Source: Candidatus Gastranaerophilales bacterium
Lineage (GTDB): Bacteria; Cyanobacteriota; Vampirovibrionia; Gastranaerophilales; JANQFW01
Assembly (NCBI GenBank): GCA_028280605.1
Contig: JANQLL010000143.1
Coordinates: 4,218-68,217 of the forward strand
DNA: 64,000 nucleotides
Reading direction: 5' to 3'
Positions 38,811-51,240 of the stretch are shown piece by piece. Both the position numbers and the translations under genes were made by a program. Below the pieces are notes generated by a model. That model searched no databases. It saw only the letters and a program-made list of their open reading frames with translations, and was not told where the DNA came from. How positions within the stretch are numbered: the stretch's first letter is position 1; the number at the start of each line of letters is the position of its first letter.

Positions 38811-39230
38811 TTAATTATTTTCTTTCTTTCCATTACTGATATTAATTCCAAGCTTTACGGCAAATGTATATATAGCCGCACTACTAAGGGCAGTTGTTAG
38901 AACCCTTTTAGTCAGGAATTTTTTAACAAGTTGATTTTTATCTGCTTTAGTTTTTGCTTGTTTCATTTTATCCCTTAACTTGAAATATTTATGAGCATTA
39001 AATAATGGGATTGATAATAATGTAGATGGAATTAATCCCCAAAGTGCTGGTAATCTTGTACCTTTATCAGTATAAGGAGATAAAAAATTACTGCAATCTT
39101 TAACAATATTTCTTAAAGTTCCAATTTTAGTCCCTTCCAAGTTATCAGTTTTTTTATTTTGAGAAGTTTGATAATTAGAAGAAAAGCTTGGCTTTATGAA
39201 ACTTGATTTAAAATTAATTGAATTAACCAT
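38811..39230 (-). CDS. hypothetical membrane protein with N-terminal SINFK motif
   Basis: MVNSINFKSSF start (ATG 39230), two hydrophobic segments, no recognisable domain. Confidence 0.45.
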   Translation of the reverse strand: MVNSINFKSSFIKPSFSSNYQTSQNKKTDNLEGTKIGTLRNIVKDCSNFLSPYTDKGTRLPALWGLIPSTLLSIPLFNAHKYFKLRDKMKQAKTKADKNQLVKKFLTKRVLTTALSSAAIYTFAVKLGINISNGKKENN

Positions 39231-39368
39231 AAATTTGCACAAAATTCTAAAATTAGTTAACTAATGAATAAAATATTATTACAAAAAGAAATGTACACAA
39301 TGTTAAAATGATTTTTCTTTACTTTTTTTAACTTATAATTTCACCCTAATTTTTTGTCATTTTATATA

Positions 39369-42205: not shown

Positions 42206-42991
42206 ATGATTAAAAATATAAATAATATTCCTAAATCTAATTTAATTGCCAGGGCTGACACAAATTTTTGTGCACGCTGGCCTTTATTTAAAGGTGAAGC
42301 CTCAGCCCCGGATACAGTTAGCCTTCTTAATTGCCCCGGCAAAAAACTTGGCGCTTTAAAACAAATTAAAAAGTTTTTTAAAACAACTTATAAAAATATT
42401 AAAAAATTTGGTAAAAAAACATATAAAAAAATAAAAAAATTTTTCAAAAATTTAATAAGCAGATTAAAAAATCTACTTTTAACAACAGAAGATAAACGCA
42501 TAGACAATTTTCATACTGTAGGCGGAAAGCTTTTAAGAGGTGCCCAGCCTGATACTGAAAAAGCAATGCAAGCTTTGCACGAAAAAGGCGTTAAAACGAT
42601 TATTGACCTTAGGTCAACCAAAACTTTGCCTCCCGAAATTATGAGACAAGAAATAGAAATGGCAGCTCGTCATGGTATAACGCACGTAAACATACCAATG
42701 CATGCCAATAAAAAAATAACAGAAGCAAACATAAGAGAATTTTTTAAAGCTATTAATAAAACGGATGGAATAGTATACGTACACTGTAAACAAGGCATAG
42801 ACAGAACCGGTATAACAACAGCGCTATACGAAATGAAAAAATTTGGTAAAACCCCAGAACAAGCATTTGAAAACATGAAAAAATTTGGATACAACTGGTA
42901 TCACAAAATTAAATTTAAAGCTCAAATGGACTATCTGCTTAACGATAGAGATAAGTGGCAACCAATTTTAGATAAAGTTACTGTTAATTAA
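42206..42991 (+). CDS. protein tyrosine / dual-specificity phosphatase with N-terminal FKG motif and Lys-rich amphipathic repeat
   Basis: Active-site P-loop VHCKQGIDRTG (CX5R), N-terminal PLFKGEASAP, and KKFFKTTYKNIKKFGKKTYKKIKKFFKN repeat. Confidence 0.8.
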   Translation: MIKNINNIPKSNLIARADTNFCARWPLFKGEASAPDTVSLLNCPGKKLGALKQIKKFFKTTYKNIKKFGKKTYKKIKKFFKNLISRLKNLLLTTEDKRIDNFHTVGGKLLRGAQPDTEKAMQALHEKGVKTIIDLRSTKTLPPEIMRQEIEMAARHGITHVNIPMHANKKITEANIREFFKAINKTDGIVYVHCKQGIDRTGITTALYEMKKFGKTPEQAFENMKKFGYNWYHKIKFKAQMDYLLNDRDKWQPILDKVTVN

Positions 42992-43004: not shown

Positions 43005-43472
43005 TTATACTTTAGACTTTTCAATAATATTAGTAGTGGATTTACCCTCAACAAAAGAAACAAACTCCACTCGTCCGCCGGCATCCATAACAGTTTTAGC
43101 TTCAGGCAGGCTGTTAATACTATAGTCTCCGCCTTTAACGTGTACATCAGGTTTGATTTGACCTAATAAGCTCACAGGCGTGCCTTCATCAAATATTACA
43201 ACATAATCTATAAATCCTAATGCTGCCATAACTTCGGCTCTGTCATCCTGATTATTTATAGGGCGCTTAGGCCCTTTCAATTTTTTAACCGAACTGTCAG
43301 AATTCAAACCTAATATAAGCACATCGCCGTATGATTTAGCCTGCTTCAAATACCTCACATGTCCCACGTGCAGAATATCAAAGCAACCGTTGGTGGTAAC
43401 AATTTTTTTGTTCTCCGCCCTTAGCTTATTGACCAAATCTTCAATTTCGTTTCTGTTTATAACCTTACCCAT
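43005..43472 (-). CDS. hldC: D-glycero-beta-D-manno-heptose 1-phosphate adenylyltransferase
   Basis: TNGCFDILHVGHVRYL cytidylyltransferase motif, NSDSSVKKLKGPKRP, and VKGGDY. Confidence 0.9.
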   Translation of the reverse strand: MGKVINRNEIEDLVNKLRAENKKIVTTNGCFDILHVGHVRYLKQAKSYGDVLILGLNSDSSVKKLKGPKRPINNQDDRAEVMAALGFIDYVVIFDEGTPVSLLGQIKPDVHVKGGDYSINSLPEAKTVMDAGGRVEFVSFVEGKSTTNIIEKSKV

Positions 43473-43490
43473 AATCCTGCCCGTCTATAC

Positions 43491-44510
43491 TTAAATACAG
43501 CAAACTTCTTCTTTTTGCTCTGCCTGACTAAAATGTTGTTTGATAATTTCTTTAATTTCATCCGGCTTAATAGTTGTCGTCCCGATTTTTCTAACAGCAA
43601 CACCGGCAGCATAATTCCCTATCCAAATAGAATCCGCAAGCTCAAAGCCAGATGCGGCCAGGCTCAACGCAAGCGTAGAAATTAAAGAATCCCCTGCCCC
43701 TGTTACATCGTATACCTGAGAAGAAATAGCCGGTATTTGCTCAATCTGGTCATCTTTATATATCAATACTCCGTTCTCGCCCAGAGTAACTAAAATAGTA
43801 TCTATATCAGTTATTCTTTGCAGATTTTTTGCCATTTGCTCAGGGCATGTGCCTTTTGGCGATTGACTGGCAAGTTCAGCTTCAAGCCTGTTAGGGGTAA
43901 TAATATCAGCATTGTTATACTTGATGTAATCAATACCTTTAGGGTCGATCAAAACCTTTTTGCCGTGCTTGTGACAAATTTTAATAGTTTGTTCAATCAA
44001 AAAGGGCGTAAGCACGCCTTTTGCGTAGTCTGACAAAACAACAATATCAACGCCGTTAATTAGTTCTTCAACAATTTGTAGCAGCTCATTTTCAATTTCA
44101 GCAGGTATTGACTTGGTTGATTCTTTATCAATCCTTGCTATTTGTTGCCTGCTATGTGCTAACAGTCTGGTTTTTGTAGTCGTAGGCCGGCTTTTATCTT
44201 TTACAATGTAGCTACTTAATACATTATTTTGTCTCAATTCTGAAATCAAAATATTAGCCTGATGATCATCGCCAACCACGCCTAAGATATATGCATTGCC
44301 GCCAAGAGATTTAATATTACTGGCCACGTTAGCGGCCCCACCCAATATATATTTATAATCTTCCGCTTCCAGTACAGGCACGGGCGCTTCCGGTGATAGT
44401 CGGCTGGCATTCCCGCAAATATATTCATCCAATATAATATCGCCCAATATCAAAACACTATAATCACTAAACCTATCAATAATATCGAATAATTTATCCT
44501 GTTTTTTCAT
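43491..44510 (-). CDS. hldA: D-glycero-beta-D-manno-heptose 7-phosphate kinase (PfkB family)
   Basis: ILGDIILDEY..G...RLSPEAPVPV, GGAANVA.N...LG and DVTGAGD motifs. ATG at 44510 has an AGGAGA RBS. Confidence 0.9.
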   Translation of the reverse strand: MKKQDKLFDIIDRFSDYSVLILGDIILDEYICGNASRLSPEAPVPVLEAEDYKYILGGAANVASNIKSLGGNAYILGVVGDDHQANILISELRQNNVLSSYIVKDKSRPTTTKTRLLAHSRQQIARIDKESTKSIPAEIENELLQIVEELINGVDIVVLSDYAKGVLTPFLIEQTIKICHKHGKKVLIDPKGIDYIKYNNADIITPNRLEAELASQSPKGTCPEQMAKNLQRITDIDTILVTLGENGVLIYKDDQIEQIPAISSQVYDVTGAGDSLISTLALSLAASGFELADSIWIGNYAAGVAVRKIGTTTIKPDEIKEIIKQHFSQAEQKEEVCCI

Positions 44511-44600
44511 ATATTTTCTCCTGCCTGGCATATTTCCCATATATTACCCCAAAATCATAGTTCAGTCGATTTTTTTGTTACATATTTTAAGTAATTTAAG

Positions 44601-44770: not shown

Positions 44771-45199
44771 AAGTTTTTTAAGCGCACCTATCATTTTTTG
44801 ATAATTTCTTTAAAATTTAGTTTATTTTTTTCTTTTTATTTAATAAAAAAATAATAAAAAGAAACTATCTGCCCACCTATGCCTACATATTTATTTAAAA
44901 TATTACCCATCTGGCTATGTTTACTTGTTGCTGTGGATAATGTAAATAAATATTAAGTAATAAATTTAAATTAGCAATTTTTTTTATCAGGTACTTTAAA
45001 TATTATAGCAAGTCGATTAATAGGAAGGATTGCGTCTCATTAACCAATTAGGAATAAAAAAACTGTAACGATTTTTTAACTTTTAAAAAAATTAATAACA
45101 ACTTATTATATATTTCAACTTAAAATGAATTAGATAATCACAATAAATTAAAAAAAAGTTAACATAAAAATAGTAGTAAGGAAGAAAGGGAAAGCCCAT

Positions 45200-45856
45200 A
45201 TGTCTATCAATTCAGTAAGCGGCATTCAAAGACAAAGACAAGCAGTTCAGTTCAGAGGAACGCAAGACGCGCAGCAATCAGATGGTCAAAAAAATGGTAT
45301 GAATAAAGCTGCAATTATAGGTGGTAGCGCTCTAGCGGGTGGTGCAGCCGGTGGAGCTGTTTCATATTTTACAGCTCCCGGTTCAGACAAAGTAGCTGAG
45401 CAAATCAATAATAAAGCTTTAGAAGGTTCAAAAAAATTAATTGAAGATACTAGCATCTTTGAAAAACTTAAAGACTTCACTGAAAAATTAACTGGCAATA
45501 TTGAAAGACAAGAAGAGAAAAATGTGTTCAAATTTACTGATGGTATTAAGAGTGCATTAGGAGATAAAACAGAAGCAGCTGAAAAGCTAATGAATGATAC
45601 AATTGGAGAAGGCTTATTATCTAAAGCTGGAGGTACTCTCGAATTAGCGTCTAAGCCCACCGGTGAAGGTGCTGAAAAAAAATTATCAGAGTTCACGGCT
45701 GAAGGCGCTAAAAAGTTAGACGTTATTGCTGAAAAGGTAAAAGTTGGTGCTGGTAGAATTGCACTAGGTGTTGCAGCAGGATTGGCATTATGTGCTGGTG
45801 CAGCAGCTCTATTTACCCGTGGTAAAAAAGCAGCAGAAGGCGAGCAACAACAGTAA
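45200..45856 (+). CDS. FKG-motif family protein P1 (YtxH-like Gly/Ala segment + C-terminal anchor)
   Basis: MSINSVSGIQRQRQAVQFRG, AAIIGGSALAGGAAGGAVSYFTAPGS, and C-terminal IALGVAAGLALCAGAAALF with a Q-rich tail. Confidence 0.65.
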   Translation: MSINSVSGIQRQRQAVQFRGTQDAQQSDGQKNGMNKAAIIGGSALAGGAAGGAVSYFTAPGSDKVAEQINNKALEGSKKLIEDTSIFEKLKDFTEKLTGNIERQEEKNVFKFTDGIKSALGDKTEAAEKLMNDTIGEGLLSKAGGTLELASKPTGEGAEKKLSEFTAEGAKKLDVIAEKVKVGAGRIALGVAAGLALCAGAAALFTRGKKAAEGEQQQ

Positions 45857-45885
45857 TCAATAATATGTATAAATAATTTAAAAAA

Positions 45886-45918
45886 AGACTATCCCATAGC
45901 CAAATAGGATAGTCTTTT
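45886..45918 (+). terminator. intrinsic terminator after P1
   Basis: Stem agactatcc/ggatagtct followed by a T-run. Confidence 0.7.
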
Positions 45919-45946
45919 GACATTTTATTGACTTATAAATGTAACA

Positions 45947-45959
45947 TTTTGTTTACATT
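45947..45959. promoter_or_regulatory. perfect 13-nt palindrome AAATGTAACATTT upstream of P2
   Basis: The same 13-mer is at 47245-47257 upstream of P3, and a degenerate copy is at 49903-49915. Confidence 0.45.
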
Positions 45960-46078
45960 TGCAAAAAACACTGACAATTATATTTATGTTTCTGGTTATT
46001 ATAGTTAGAATAAAGTCAATAAAAAATAAGTATAAATAAATAATGAAGAAGAAGTAAGATAAGAAGGGAAGAATCCAA

Positions 46079-47179
46079 ATGTCTATCAATCTAGGAATGA
46101 TTGGGGCTAAGAGATCTATAAGCTTTAAAGGTGCTAGCTCAGCTCCAAGTGATCAAGAGTTGAAAAGAATGGGAAAAGGTTCAGCTTCTGGTTCAGCGGG
46201 GTTATCACGTACTAATTCAGCTCCAACTGCAGCTGAATTAGCAAGAAAGACAACACCTAAATCCCCAGAGAAACTTGTAGGTGATTTTTTCAAAGGAGTT
46301 GAGAAATCAGCAAAAAAAGCGTCACCCAAAAAGATTATTGAAAATATTTTAAATGGATTAGATAAAGAAGAAGCAAGAACTTTAGCAAGAAAGACAACAC
46401 CTAAATCCCCAGAGAAACTTGTAGGTGATTTTTTCAAAGGAGTTGAGAAAACAGCAGCAAGAAACTCACCAGAAGCTTTAGCAAAGATAAAGGCAAGAAA
46501 ATTTGCAAAAAAACTAACACCGAAGTCTCCAGAGAAACTTGTAGGTAAATTTTTTGAAGGAATTGAGAATCCTCCAAAGTCAATATCAAAGCCATCGAAT
46601 GAAAGACTTGTAGGTGAATTTTTTGAAGGAGTTGCTGCTTTAGAAAAAAGAGAAGCCAAAATAGCAGCTAAAAAAGCTAAAGCTGAAGCAGGAAGGAAAG
46701 CTAAAGCCGAGGCAGGAAAAGTCGCCAGGGAAGCAGCAAAAATATCCCCAGAGGCGATTGCAAAAAGAGAAGCAAGAAAGTTGGCAAAAGAGGCAGCAAA
46801 GAATCCAGAAGTAATAGATGCAGCTGCAACACATGTTGGTCAATTATTTAAAGGTGTAGAATCACAAGTTGCAGCGGAAAATATGGCTAAAAATATTAAT
46901 ACAATTTATGGTGCTCAGACCGGAATTGCTGAATGTACTGGGAAAATACCTAAAGCATCCAATGGGCCAAAGGGAATGGGTGGATCTTCGCTCCCAGCAA
47001 GGAAGAATGCAGTAAAAGCTGCCGGTGAAACAGCTGGAAATGTTGCTAAAGGTAAAGGCGGATGGATTGCTGCAGGTGTAGTAGGAGGATTGGTGTTAGC
47101 CGGTGGTCTTACAGCATACTTTATGAATAGATCCCACAAAAACCCTGAGCAACAATCAAACCCAACCCAACAAGCATAG
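46079..47179 (+). CDS. FKG-motif family protein P2 (five LVG.FF(K/E)G(V/I)E repeats, Lys/Ala-rich helix, C-terminal anchor)
   Basis: MSINLGMIGAKRSISFKGASSAP, repeats ARKTTPKSPEKLVGDFFKGVEK, the anchor WIAAGVVGGLVLAGGLTAYF, and the tail EQQSNPTQQA. Confidence 0.65.
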   Translation: MSINLGMIGAKRSISFKGASSAPSDQELKRMGKGSASGSAGLSRTNSAPTAAELARKTTPKSPEKLVGDFFKGVEKSAKKASPKKIIENILNGLDKEEARTLARKTTPKSPEKLVGDFFKGVEKTAARNSPEALAKIKARKFAKKLTPKSPEKLVGKFFEGIENPPKSISKPSNERLVGEFFEGVAALEKREAKIAAKKAKAEAGRKAKAEAGKVAREAAKISPEAIAKREARKLAKEAAKNPEVIDAAATHVGQLFKGVESQVAAENMAKNINTIYGAQTGIAECTGKIPKASNGPKGMGGSSLPARKNAVKAAGETAGNVAKGKGGWIAAGVVGGLVLAGGLTAYFMNRSHKNPEQQSNPTQQA

Positions 47180-47208
47180 TAAACAATCAAAAAAATAATA
47201 TATACAAA

Positions 47209-47234
47209 AGCAGGCTAATCTTACAGCCTGCTTT
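47209..47234 (+). terminator. intrinsic terminator after P2
   Basis: Stem agcaggct/agcctgct followed by a T-run; identical hairpin at 48346-48373. Confidence 0.7.
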
Positions 47235-47244
47235 AAATATTAAC

Positions 47245-47257
47245 AAATGTAACATTT
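47245..47257. promoter_or_regulatory. palindrome AAATGTAACATTT upstream of P3
   Basis: Identical to 45947-45959. It is followed by a conserved ~100-nt leader (ttatgttt.tggttattata.ttagaataaag). Confidence 0.45.
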
Positions 47258-47383
47258 CTTCTATGATTTAAAATAAGTCTAACAACAATACTTATGTTTT
47301 TGGTTATTATATTTAGAATAAAGCTAGTAAAAAGTAATATAAATAAAAACAATAATAATAAAAGAAAGACGGGAAGGATACAA

Positions 47384-48316
47384 ATGTCAATTAGTTCAGT
47401 AAAAACAGGCTGTGCAAGGCAATCAATTCAGTTTAAAGGGGCTCAACAGTCAAAGCAAGTAGATAATCAAAATAACGGCAAAAGAGCAGCTATTGTAGCT
47501 GGTAGTACAGTAGCTGGAGCAGCAACTGGTACAGCAGTTCCTTATTTTGTTACAAGGAAGTCAATGAAAAAAACTGAAGAGGCTGCAAATAAGCAAATTA
47601 CGCAAGCTGCTAATGATTTACTTAATAATGATCAAAAGGCCGTTTCTGCCATACTTTGTGACTCTGAAAATTTTGCTGTTAATGTCATTGATAATGGTAA
47701 AAATAAATCTATTAATGTGAAGCCAAACGCAGGGGTTTTAGAACAAATTAGTCAAAATTGTTCCCATAATGACCTGAAGGCATCCGCAAGTACGATTGAA
47801 GAAGCCTTTAATAAAGTAAATCTTAGTGAATTCGCAGAAGGTCCTGTTTCATTAGGTAATAAGCAATTTCAGCAAATGTGTACTAGTTTAGTTGAAAATG
47901 AGTCAAATAAAAAAGTCAGGAACGCATTGCAGTACATTGATGATTACACTCTTAAGATTGTAAATAATGGTGAAAAAAAGGTTATTAAATTAGTTCCTAC
48001 AGAAGAGGCAATTCAGAGTAGCAAACGTTACTATAAGAAAGACGTATTATTATCTGCAAGTGAACTTGGTGAAGCCTTAACTGAAAATTTAAACCTTGAT
48101 AAATTAAAAGAGGGATCAATTACCTTCACCGAAACAATTATAGATGGAGCTAAAGAACTCTCCGCCAAAGGTGCTAAGGCTGCAGGGAACGCTTCTCATA
48201 TAGTGGCAGGTGTTGCTGGTGGTGCAATGGTTGGTCTTGGTGCGTTAGCTTTAGCAGCTTTTTTAACTCGCAAAAAAACATCAAACGCTGAGCAACAACC
48301 AACCCAACAAGCATAG
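47384..48316 (+). CDS. FKG-motif family protein P3 (two ~65-aa internal repeats, C-terminal anchor)
   Basis: MSISSVKTGCARQSIQFKGAQQ, AAIVAGSTVAGAATGTAVPYF, the anchor VAGVAGGAMVGLGALALAAF, and the tail EQQPTQQA. ATG at 47384 has a GGAAGGA RBS. Confidence 0.65.
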   Translation: MSISSVKTGCARQSIQFKGAQQSKQVDNQNNGKRAAIVAGSTVAGAATGTAVPYFVTRKSMKKTEEAANKQITQAANDLLNNDQKAVSAILCDSENFAVNVIDNGKNKSINVKPNAGVLEQISQNCSHNDLKASASTIEEAFNKVNLSEFAEGPVSLGNKQFQQMCTSLVENESNKKVRNALQYIDDYTLKIVNNGEKKVIKLVPTEEAIQSSKRYYKKDVLLSASELGEALTENLNLDKLKEGSITFTETIIDGAKELSAKGAKAAGNASHIVAGVAGGAMVGLGALALAAFLTRKKTSNAEQQPTQQA

Positions 48317-48345
48317 TAAACAATAAAAAAAATAATATATACAAA

Positions 48346-48373
48346 AGCAGGCTAATCTTACAGCCTGCTTTTT
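48346..48373 (+). terminator. intrinsic terminator after P3
   Basis: Same hairpin as after P2, followed by a T-run. Confidence 0.7.
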
Positions 48374-48476
48374 AAATTAAATAAATATAAGAGAAGTTTG
48401 AATAAAATTTAAATTCCCACCTTGAAAAAATCCCACAATGGGTTATAATGATATCATAAAAAATGGAGGATAAACC

Positions 48477-48749
48477 ATGGCTGCAGTTGAAAAATATTTG
48501 AGACCTGACTCAAAAGGGAGAATTACTCTAGGTAGTCTCGCAAAAAATGTTAGTAGCTACAAAGCCTACTTTAATGAAGATGGCTCTATTACACTGGAAC
48601 CTCAAGTGGAAATCCCGGCTAAAGAAGCTTGGTTATATCAAAATAAAGAAGCAATTGAAGCCGTTAAAGAAGGTTTGCAGGATGCTTCCTCGGGTAATGT
48701 TAAAAAACGTGGAAGCTTTGCAGTGTATGTGGAAAGTGAAGAGGATTAA
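48477..48749 (+). CDS. AbrB/SpoVT-fold antitoxin-like protein
   Basis: DSKGRITLGSLAK swapped-hairpin motif; 90 aa; its stop overlaps the start of the downstream toxin gene. Confidence 0.6.
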   Translation: MAAVEKYLRPDSKGRITLGSLAKNVSSYKAYFNEDGSITLEPQVEIPAKEAWLYQNKEAIEAVKEGLQDASSGNVKKRGSFAVYVESEED

Positions 48750-49045
48750 TGTCATTTGAATTACTTTTTACAGATCGTGCTGACTCTGATTTAAAAAAGC
48801 TGGAGTCAAATAAAAGCCTAAAAAAACGACTAAATGCAGTGAGAAAAACTCTTGGCTACCCGGAAGTCAATCCAAGACACCAGAGTCTCAATACTCATGA
48901 ATTTACTTCATTGACAAAAGCATACGGTTTCAAGATATATGAAGCCTATGCGGAAAATAATACCCCCGCCGCATACAGAATATTCTGGTATTATGGGCCT
49001 GACAAGCGTCAAATAACAATTATAGCTATTACTCCTCATCCTTAA
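48749..49045 (+). CDS. RelE/ParE-superfamily toxin-like protein
   Basis: 98 aa, C-terminal YRIFWYYGPDKRQITIIAITPHP pattern typical of RelE/ParE-fold toxins; overlapping TAATG junction with the antitoxin. Confidence 0.6.
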   Translation: MSFELLFTDRADSDLKKLESNKSLKKRLNAVRKTLGYPEVNPRHQSLNTHEFTSLTKAYGFKIYEAYAENNTPAAYRIFWYYGPDKRQITIIAITPHP

Positions 49046-49184
49046 TATTGTGATGCATTGTAAACTTTTTTATAACTTTCCCGCCAAACCTATCAACTTT
49101 ATTTATGTTTAAAGTTAAATAAATAGTGAGCAGATTTTTTATAAGCCACCCATCGGAGCTTTTAAACTAGGAGAATTAAAAATA

Positions 49185-49868
49185 ATGATACATACAAACA
49201 AGTCAGCACAACCAATAAGATTCGCATCAAATCAACATCAAACCGGCGATAGAAAAAGTTCCATGGGTAAATACCTTGCAACAGGCGCAGCTGGTGGAGT
49301 AATAGGTGCAGGTACCAGTTATAAAATGAGCTCAGTCAAGGGTGACAAATTTTTAAAGGAAGTAGGCGATGTTATTAAAAAAGAGAACTTCGCCAAAACT
49401 TTAGGCATTACAAAGGCAGGAAACTCAACTACCTTAGAAATTGTAGAAAATACAGCTGCAAAACCAGAAGCTACAAATATTTTTAAAAAGGCTTATCTCA
49501 AATTATTCCCTCAAAAACAAATGGAATTCCGGTTGGGAGACAAAAAAGCTAAGGATGCTCTAAATAAAGGTCTAAGCCATATGCTGGGCGATGTTCAACA
49601 GGCTGCAAAGTTAACAGTGACAAATAAAACTGCTGTGCAAAAGTCGCACGGTATTGGTGGAATGTTTAATTGGGTTAAAAACATCTTTAACAAGTCCGCA
49701 CCTAAGACAGAACAAATCTTTGAAGTTGCCGGTAAATCAAATGCCAATCCAATAAAATTAAATAAGCATGCGTGGGCTTATTCAGGAACAGGTGCAGTAA
49801 CAGGTGTAGGTGCAGGCCTGTTAATTACAGGCTTGGCAGCCCTAAAGAAAAGCAAATCAGAAAATTAA
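49185..49868 (+). CDS. FKG-motif family protein P4 (divergent)
   Basis: SAQPIRFASNQ, LATGAAGGVIGAGTSY, and the C-terminal anchor GAVTGVGAGLLITGLAAL. Confidence 0.55.
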   Translation: MIHTNKSAQPIRFASNQHQTGDRKSSMGKYLATGAAGGVIGAGTSYKMSSVKGDKFLKEVGDVIKKENFAKTLGITKAGNSTTLEIVENTAAKPEATNIFKKAYLKLFPQKQMEFRLGDKKAKDALNKGLSHMLGDVQQAAKLTVTNKTAVQKSHGIGGMFNWVKNIFNKSAPKTEQIFEVAGKSNANPIKLNKHAWAYSGTGAVTGVGAGLLITGLAALKKSKSEN

Positions 49869-50377
49869 TAATATAATATTTTGGATTTAGTCTATTGTAA
49901 AGAAATGTTACTTTTGTCGCATTTAGCACTTTTTTGACTGCAAATATTTTTAAAAAGATGTTATTATATATATTAAGTATATATTTATCGGTTTATATAA
50001 ATTTTAAAAACCAGAAAGAGAATAAAGGGATGTATTGATATGAAATTATCACAATACACAAAAACTTTATTATCTGTTTTGTGGAATATAATGACATTCC
50101 TATGCTCCTCAATTTCACTAAACAATACTACAGAAAAGAAAACACCTTTTTTTCCTGATTTTGTGCTTATTGATAATTATTTATTTTCTATATATAAGAT
50201 TCTAAAAGAATTAATAAATAAAAAAATATTAAAAAATAAAAATAATACCACTGCCGAAACATCGGTAGTGCCAAACAATATATATAAAAATAAAAATTCT
50301 GTATCAAGCAGAATAAATACTAATAATATAATAATAAATCAAGCACAACAATGTGTGAATTTGTTATATATCAAGAA

Positions 50378-50432
50378 GTTAAAGGATGCGCTAGCCACGC
50401 AAATCTTAATTTCAAAACAGTACACTTTTCGC
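50378..50432 (+). repeat. R2 dispersed repeat (gcgctagccacgc core)
   Basis: gttaaaggatgcgctagccacgcaaatcttaatttcaaaacagtaca is matched at 58867-58926. Confidence 0.55.
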
Positions 50433-50748
50433 ATGAAGGATAAGTGTGCCTATTTTTCCCCTTTTGCTATGCAAGATTATCATTGCCTTTATATTTTTTA
50501 ATTTTTACGCAACATACAATTGAATAATTTTTTTTCGTCTCTTTAAGGCTAAAGGAGCGGGATATTCTAATGGAAAACATTTTATTGCGCTTATAGAATC
50601 TATTTTTAGTATCTAATTAAGCGTAAATTTTTTTTTACTTAGCAATTTTTTTTATGTTTCTGTTTTATATTTATGAAATCATTATTTTGTACAAAGTAAT
50701 AATAAATTTTTATAATAAATGGAGTAAAGTAAATAAGGGAGTAATATT

Positions 50749-51240
50749 ATGACTAGTATGCCACCACAACCATTGCCTCCATTGGCGCAATTAGCCCAAT
50801 GCTCGCAATCTCCTGAGCCTGGCGCTATAAGACAGATGCAACAACCACAATTAAGTCCGCAAGATATGCAAGATATGATTATTGCAGCTCAAGCAATGCA
50901 ACAAATGCAAGGCGGTGAACCTCCGGCAATACCGGCAGGAGCTATTAAAATGCCAAAGCAATCTATAATACCAATGCTTATAGCAGGTGCTGGCGTTATA
51001 GGTGGTGGTGTGCTTGGTTTTGCTTCAAAAGGCAAAGGGCAATTTGCCCGGTTTTTAAGAGATGCCGGCAGAACGGGTGTAGGTGCAGTAATTGGTGGAG
51101 CTATCGGTATGATTGGCGCGTCAGTAGTAGCCAGAAATATGGCTATGAAGCAATTGAAAGCTATGGATAAAATGCTTGCAGGAATGCAAGGGGTGCCTCA
51201 GCAGCTACCCAACTCGACACAACAACCTCCACAAAGGTAA
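50749..51240 (+). CDS. Q/P-rich protein with two Gly-zipper membrane segments (loosely related to P1-P4)
   Basis: PMLIAGAGVIGGGVLGF and GVGAVIGGAIGMIGASVV; Q/P-rich termini. Confidence 0.55.
   Translation: MTSMPPQPLPPLAQLAQCSQSPEPGAIRQMQQPQLSPQDMQDMIIAAQAMQQMQGGEPPAIPAGAIKMPKQSIIPMLIAGAGVIGGGVLGFASKGKGQFARFLRDAGRTGVGAVIGGAIGMIGASVVARNMAMKQLKAMDKMLAGMQGVPQQLPNSTQQPPQR

Follow-up and report, generated by a model that had tools for sequence, protein, structure and literature searches.

We analyzed a window of 64,000 nucleotides from Candidatus Gastranaerophilales bacterium (genome G000, a 3.3-Mb draft with ∼32% G+C) and describe here a cluster of five tandem genes, P1 to P5, that encode small membrane proteins built from shared ends and exchanged middles. 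The window corresponds to C203:4218-68217 of this genome, and window coordinates equal the C203 coordinate minus 4217. All five plus-strand open reading frames (ORFs) that an initial annotation had assigned to this cluster are present as described. P1 (45200..45856, 218 amino acids) contains a conserved N-terminal module (N-module), a helical middle, a C-terminal transmembrane helix and the tail TRGKKAAEGEQQQ. P2 (46079..47179, 366 amino acids) combines an N-terminal motif with five LVG.FF(K/E)G repeats, a Lys/Ala-rich helix and a C-terminal transmembrane helix, and has no Gly/Ala-rich segment. P3 (47384..48316, 310 amino acids) starts at the MSISS codon at 47384, in a reading frame open from 47294, and carries the N-module, two ∼85-residue helix/β-hairpin/helix repeats that are weakly similar to FlaG, and a C-terminal transmembrane helix. 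P4 (49185..49868, 227 amino acids) has a degenerate N-terminal motif (..PIRFAS), a C-terminal transmembrane helix and the tail KKSKSEN, and P5 (50749..51240, 163 amino acids) has a Pro/Gln/Met-rich N terminus, two Gly-zipper segments and a long Gln/Pro tail. The cluster lies between genes of lipopolysaccharide synthesis, with the divergent hldE/rfaE pair on the minus strand (43005-44540) on one side and lpxD-lpxC-fabZ (from 51410) on the other, and not beside flagellar genes.

All five genes are preceded by an element of ∼75 nucleotides, the P5 copy being partial. We located this putative promoter/operator on the plus strand at 45061..45133 (P1, nhmmer E 3.3e-8), 45936..46009 (P2, E 3.1e-14), 47243..47317 (P3, E 6.4e-12), 49055..49128 (P4, E 1.1e-10) and 50618..50676 (P5, E 1.4e-3). 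When the whole 3.3-Mb genome was searched with the element profile (nhmmer), only these five sites were returned at E < 0.01 (E 3e-14 to 1.4e-3). The element begins with a palindrome of the type TGTAAC-N6-GTTACA (AAATGTAACATTT in P2 and P3), followed by ∼28 nucleotides, TAACAA, 6 nucleotides and TTATGTTTTTGGTTATTATATTTAGAAT; downstream of it lies a leader of 60–80 nucleotides with a GAAGGGAA Shine-Dalgarno region. In the congener G002, which has five tandem genes of its own (Q1 to Q5), the element is kept before Q1, Q2, Q5 and the P4 orthologue. We infer that it comprises a weak sigma-70-type promoter (TTTATG, 17 nucleotides, TAGAAT) and an upstream operator that would be bound by a dimeric regulator. 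A weak sixth match in the genome leads to a second family locus (C78:17900-20593), which encodes a 609-residue tail-anchored protein starting ..MLINAVRHNTVKFRG (C78:18059-19888) and a 210-residue protein starting MSINNININ..IAFAG (C78:19961-20593; E 1e-5 to the N-module profile). Upstream of this locus are a perfect inverted repeat, TGTAAC-N6-GTTAC, and a TTTTATGTTTAAAC core, the same promoter core as that of P4. The family comprises at least seven genes in two loci, with a private operator/promoter and with ends homogenised by recombination.

Comparison of the proteins shows where the shared ends stop. The initial annotation had treated the locus as a paralogous family of four genes with a looser fifth, and P1, P2 and P3 are indeed true paralogues. 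The N termini of P1 and P3 share 47% sequence identity over the first 75 residues (E 2e-14), and P1-type and P3-type subfamily profiles that include the congener proteins align with a probability of 98.7% (hhalign, E 2.8e-16), over residues 1–62 only. Homology between the two types therefore ends at about residue 62, and the description "same ends, different middles" is correct. P2 has its first 18 residues in common with the family, and its DNA around the ribosome-binding site and start region as well (repeat D6). The C-terminal anchor and tail of P2 resemble those of P3 (E 0.023), and an 82-nucleotide block at the 3′ ends of the two genes, covering the last codons and the terminator, has 95% identity (repeat D4), which argues for recent gene conversion. 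The repeats D3, D4 and D6 together document concerted evolution of the ends. The P4 and P5 proteins are not significantly similar to P1–P3, and belong to the group by their upstream element and architecture and not by protein similarity. Strong terminator hairpins follow P1 (45883..45918, fold z = -5.0), P2 (47207..47234, within the 82-nucleotide block), P3 (48343..48372) and P5 (51281..51312, fold z = -5.7), all on the plus strand; the proposal that each gene has its own terminator fails only for P4, where we find none.

The N-module of ∼60 residues opens with a polar, acid-free stretch (M-S-I-N..) and continues with the motif x-F-[KR]-G, a linker rich in Gln and an amphiphilic helix rich in Gly and Ala. 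The Gly/Ala-rich segment, thought at first to be common to all members, is found in P1, P3, Q1, Q2 and Q4 but is missing from P2, P4, Q3 and Q5. The middles have internal structure of their own. In P2, the predicted LVG.FF(K/E)G repeats are present as four DNA copies at 72–92% identity and a fifth, divergent copy. The repeat unit (..TPKSPEKLVGDFFKGVEK..; window 46238-46652) holds the tripeptide FKG or FEG and resembles the N-terminal motif of P2 itself; the repeats also carry SPKK-like TPKSP motifs. The internal duplication reported for P3 is clear (Smith-Waterman score 88 versus 28.3 ± 5.4 for shuffled sequences, z = 11). An AlphaFold model of P3 has a low overall confidence (predicted local distance difference test (pLDDT) 54), with values of 70–84 in the repeated helix/β-hairpin/helix unit, and the model of P1 is unusable (pLDDT 32).

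We scored candidate transmembrane segments on the Hessa biological scale and inferred topology from hydrophobicity. The C-terminal Gly-zipper segments are plausible transmembrane helices of only moderate hydrophobicity (dG -1.4 to +2.6 kcal/mol), in line with the anchor that had been proposed, but P5 is not tail-anchored: its two Gly-zipper segments are 18 residues apart and are followed by a 35-residue tail. The tails that follow the transmembrane helix are basic at their start (TR.KK, RKK or KKSK) and Gln-rich. The N-proximal Gly/Ala segment is not a plausible transmembrane helix (dG +4 to +14 kcal/mol), and P1–P4 are thus best described as single-pass, C-terminally anchored proteins. The first 30 residues are polar and lack a Sec-type hydrophobic core (mean maximum 12-residue hydropathy 0.65, compared with 1.27 in other proteins). 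P1–P5 have no features of Sec, Tat or lipoprotein export and no Cys lipobox. An alignment of eight sequences contains no conserved motif before the transmembrane helix of the kind found in C-terminal sorting signals (LPXTG, PEP-CTERM, GlyGly-CTERM), and a match to Gram_pos_anchor on Q5 reaches only E 0.063. With no Sec or Tat signal, and with a Gly/Ala segment that is unlikely to span the membrane, the term "membrane-displayed" used in the initial annotation is not supported. The simplest topology predicted from these features would be tail-anchored, with the bulk of the protein in the cytoplasm.

The family is confined to one genus of the Gastranaerophilales. A HMMER pass with the family profile over 1.84 billion representative proteins returned 11 matches: the eight query sequences, a variant of Q1, one further P3-type protein and two FlaG proteins. 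A word-indexed protein search with P3 recovered P3 itself only, and a search for related loci with P3 gave no match. Among 301 genomes of the order, significant matches occur only in G000 and G002. The five tandem MSIN.. genes of G002 occupy the same position beside hldE. The orthologues of P4, which there starts MINSNKATCRSLTFTGK, and of P5 sit elsewhere in that genome, and the lpxD/hldE neighborhood is not conserved as a unit. In each of the three species of the genus, P5 is located directly upstream of lpxD. An apparent absence from the third congener, G001, was withdrawn since the orthologous hldE region is missing from its assembly. The hldE neighborhood in three other families of the order contains no such genes and no conserved variable-gene slot. 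Genus restriction, the end of homology near residue 62 and the near identity of the P2 and P3 3′ ends thus bear out the view of a lineage-specific family with constant ends and swapped middles. The same architecture recurs in weak profile matches from other families of the order. One of these, L021 (G038:C13, family f3), is an amidohydrolase-like protein (IIDAHTHLG motif) with an N-terminal MISRINMTQRPYNQSFRG (..QSFRG), a C-terminal Gly/Ala transmembrane anchor and the tail HNKKPAAQNV..; an enzyme of recognisable type can therefore sit between the two end modules.

The MSI..FKG signature had been taken as the mark of the family. The strict pattern MSI..F[KR]G matches only P1–P3 in the genome, but a genome-wide census showed it to be the local form of a motif, x-F-[KR]-G, found on ∼70 otherwise unrelated proteins. 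A crude set of 2706 ORFs contains F[KR]G 114 times within residues 7–72 and 170 times at all other positions, a 2.77-fold excess per residue (p 8e-21) that corresponds to ∼70 extra instances. Its flanks are non-random: Pro/Ile/Val occur at -2 and Ala/Ser/Gly at -1, and a stretch upstream is rich in Asn and Lys. The first 20 residues of carriers contain 0.67 acidic residues versus 1.9 in other proteins (p 1e-10) and 6.4 Ser/Thr/Asn/Gln versus 4.6, with no hydrophobic core, and Ile/Val occupy positions 2–3 in 48% of carriers versus 25% of other proteins; these comparisons are partly circular, as the class was picked with a position matrix around the motif. Carriers are mostly orphans and include many small tail-anchored proteins and several tandem paralogue pairs. 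Among the 20 larger carriers scanned, 15 have no Pfam domain, and two HAD-type hydrolases and one M20 peptidase exceed the Pfam cut-off. A further carrier in the window, at 42206-42991 on the plus strand, is a dual-specificity/PTP-type phosphatase (PF22741, E 6e-17; active site HCKQGIDRTG), whose ∼100-residue N-terminal extension carries ..WPLFKGEASAPD, matching the P2 motif and the residues that follow it; the orthologue in G002 carries ..WPLFTGKEAD. In all four of these enzymes the catalytic domain begins 60–100 residues after the start. Close to the cluster, the minus strand (38811-39242) encodes a protein of 139–143 residues that runs from MVNSINFKSSF.. at its start to NGKKENN at its end and whose C-terminal segment is hydrophobic; it is another small protein in which the N-terminal motif is combined with such a segment.

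In another family of the order F[KR]G is less strongly enriched (1.9-fold, p 0.04), and two other orders of the class, of which one lacks FlhA and the other has two copies (G304, 1.2-fold), show no enrichment. This distribution points to an order-level feature that expanded in the genus and that does not simply track the type III gate; a correlation of the motif with the presence of FlhA is unsupported, given the two copies in G304. We also rejected a Prp/L27-type propeptide, since the genome contains no Peptidase_Prp and its L27 starts MAHKKG without an N-terminal extension. Neither a sigma-28 promoter nor any other shared promoter was found across the wider motif class. G000 itself encodes two complete FlhA paralogues, the first of them canonical, and a protein of ∼495 residues with the FlhA C-terminal domain only (C63:5095-7194, C90:6089-16514 and C109:1072-2559, all outside the window). 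The second paralogue, on C90, is clustered with divergent FlgB/C-like and rod-like genes, FliF, FliG and FliI. Most of the 40 relatives that we searched in this order have the triple of two full-length proteins and one with the C-domain only; in family f3 only the second FlhA type and the C-domain protein occur, and f12 and f17 of the class have none of them.

We compared the proteins with known families, the scans covering ten sequences (P1–P5 and Q1–Q5). None of the libraries maps P1–P5 to a well-characterised family, with nothing above threshold in Pfam, NCBIfam, PHROGs, PADLOC or PDB sequences. A phage or defense origin was dismissed for lack of any PHROG or PADLOC match to P1–P5. The reading that we favor, to which we give about an even chance, is that P1–P5 and the C78 locus represent genus-restricted, co-regulated, cassette-built small membrane proteins that face the cytoplasm, are tail-anchored and carry an N-terminal motif recognised by a partner that the ∼70 carriers have in common. 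A 5′ cassette would supply the private promoter with its TGTAAC-N6-GTTACA-type operator, a GGA-rich ribosome-binding site and the ∼60-residue N-module, and a 3′ cassette the Gly-zipper transmembrane helix, the basic stop, an acidic/Gln-rich tail and the terminator; unrelated middle domains would be placed between the two. The proteins may insert post-translationally into the cytoplasmic membrane, leaving the variable domain in the cytoplasm, and the N-terminal motif may act as a lineage-wide recognition or targeting peptide for the common partner. Given a tail anchor, a common recognition peptide and a shared operator, the cluster would then tether changeable domains to the membrane under one regulator. 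Several points weigh against this interpretation. We found no partner protein of the N-terminal motif. The motif is short, and paralogous expansion of N-terminal cassettes could account for part of its enrichment. The topology is deduced from hydrophobicity alone, and the dense Arg/Lys cluster just after the transmembrane helix would also fit an N-out/C-in orientation reached by a hypothetical export route. Both AlphaFold models are poor, and a Foldseek fold search with the P3 model gave meaningless hits (best E ∼0.1, template modelling score < 0.2).

Alternatively, the proteins could be clients of a flagellar-type type III export gate, or regulators of it, with x-F-[KR]-G as a docking or export signal, P3-type proteins as tethered FlaG-like binders of FlhA and the others as membrane-inserting substrates similar to chlamydial Inc proteins; we regard this as unlikely. 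It draws on the helix and β-hairpin core of the P3-type repeat, which aligns to the core of FlaG, a regulator of filament length. The family profile matches two genuine FlaG proteins (PF03646 E 6e-26 and 1e-21) at E 5e-4 in the 1.84 billion sequences, and within the genome P3 repeat 2 is outscored as a FlaG match only by the canonical FlaG, which is encoded beside fliS on contig C178. Some FlaG proteins likewise start MSI.S. with a polar, flexible N terminus, and FlaG from Campylobacter jejuni, also with a flexible N terminus, docks onto the torus of FlhA and is exported through the type III secretion system of the flagellum (PMC11536152). The acid-poor, Ser/Thr/Asn/Gln-rich start of the carriers with Ile/Val at positions 2–3, the moderate hydrophobicity of the transmembrane helices and a lineage with two full FlhA paralogues and a C-domain-only protein would all suit such clients. 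The likeness to FlaG is weak, however: the hhalign alignment of the P3-type repeat with the FlaG core has a sensible register and E 0.0035 but a probability of only 9%, and P3 repeat 2 scores 13.8–15 bits (E 0.064–0.066) against a Pfam cut-off of 23.8 bits. In P3-type proteins the unit occurs as a duplicate attached to a membrane anchor, is located outside a fliD/fliS operon and scores below the family threshold, and we treat this likeness as a lead rather than a finding. P1, P2, P4 and P5 show no FlaG likeness, the canonical FlaG of the genome lacks the motif, F[KR]G is not enriched in the class member with two FlhA copies, no sigma-28 motif precedes the genes of the motif class, and the cluster lies away from flagellar genes. 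Inc proteins are comparable as orphan, fast-evolving tandem membrane proteins that are defined by architecture and have a polar N terminus without Sec signal, but they form a bilobed hairpin of two transmembrane helices, whereas P1–P4 have one C-terminal helix and two segments are found in P5 alone; for the present family, a target in host cells or export by a type III route would be conjecture. A broader version seems improbable to a similar degree: that the acid-free polar N terminus, up to and including x-F-[KR]-G, is a targeting or export signal of Gastranaerophilales not described before, carried by ∼2–3% of the proteome (orphans, phosphatases, HAD hydrolases, the M20 peptidase and many tail-anchored proteins), which might be served by the second flagellar-type gate or by the FlhA-C-domain-only paralogue, with P1–P5 as its regulated, membrane-inserting clients.

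A general stress function in the manner of YtxH or ElaB appears quite unlikely to us. These would be helical, membrane-associated proteins resembling late embryogenesis abundant (LEA) proteins, forming a small regulon that protects membranes or ribosomes in stationary phase or under stress. The resemblance to YtxH (PF12732) noted in the initial annotation is reproducible, falling on the same segment in P3 (17.8 bits, E 0.0045), Q4 (14.6 bits) and P1 (12.1 bits; E 0.0045–0.29 for the three), but the best score stays far below the cut-off of 37.5 bits and the other members give nothing. A Gly/Ala-rich helix is followed by an AP.S/G turn and a charged helix, and weak matches to the GvpT/GvpP system fall there as well; a weak match to MamC was also seen. 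Unlike the YtxH helix, which is at the extreme N terminus, the Gly/Ala helix is internal from residue ∼35 and is missing from half of the members, and only P1 has the "FTAPGS" sequence, in a "YFTAPGS" context that resembles the YtxH hallmark. The tail-anchored proteins ElaB and YqjD from Escherichia coli end in a Gly-zipper transmembrane helix followed by basic residues. The present family has the same single C-terminal Gly-zipper helix with basic residues and no signal peptide, and shares with ElaB, YqjD and YgaM the small size, the helical charged body and the occurrence of several paralogues per genome; it differs in its N-terminal motif, Gln-rich C-terminal tail, swapped middles and private operator. 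DUF883 (PF05957) matches none of the ten proteins at E <= 1. The Lys/Glu/Ala-rich helical middles of P1 and P2 and a dedicated operator, suggestive of condition-specific induction, would agree with a stress role, yet the P3-type middles are α/β repeats and not LEA-like, and the genome-wide motif would be left unexplained. Slightly lower we place the possibility, in our view likewise quite unlikely, that these are exported, variable proteins displayed at the envelope in an N-out/C-in orientation, with the motif as a non-Sec export signal and the middles under phage or host pressure. Constant ends, fast-evolving swapped middles, tandem arrays and gene conversion at the ends do recall families of variable surface proteins, the basic cluster right after the transmembrane helix fits a cytoplasmic C-terminal tail, and the flanking genes act in lipopolysaccharide synthesis. 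Against this, the proteins lack Sec, Tat and lipoprotein signals, the transmembrane helix is not preceded by any known C-terminal sorting motif, no export machine is linked to the motif, and the lpxD/hldE neighborhood is not kept together in G002.

In the uncultured gut Melainabacteria a large proportion of genes are orphans, and this locus offers a handle on that dark matter in three ways: through a small regulon with a palindromic operator, through a modular design that retains promoter, N-terminal module and membrane anchor and exchanges the functional middle, and through a short N-terminal motif that recurs on ∼70 other proteins. If the motif were a sorting or docking signal, it would define a client class in this lineage that includes hydrolases resembling secreted effectors, and the role of the duplicated flagellar-type export gate would become testable. 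If it is not a signal, the family still represents a clear case of cassette-wise evolution of bacterial tail-anchored proteins, which to our knowledge have been little studied outside E. coli.

The cluster is interrupted by a toxin-antitoxin-like module of two genes (48477..49045, plus strand; 90 and 98 residues, with a stop/start overlap at 48749) that is missing from the G002 cluster. It had been annotated as an AbrB-like/RelE-like pair, and the first assignment is supported by a match to an antitoxin family (PHROG 19414, E 3.4e-6), but the assignment of the RelE/ParE toxin stays below threshold (ParE_toxin, 14.8 bits, E 0.044; cut-off 23 bits). Between P4 and P5 lies an ORF of 153 residues (MKLSQYTKTLLSVLWNIMTFLC..; window 50040-50501, plus strand) with no Pfam, PHROG or PADLOC match above threshold. 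It belongs to a dispersed family with near-identical N termini on C40, C73 and C158 (two copies), which may be part of a repeated or mobile element.

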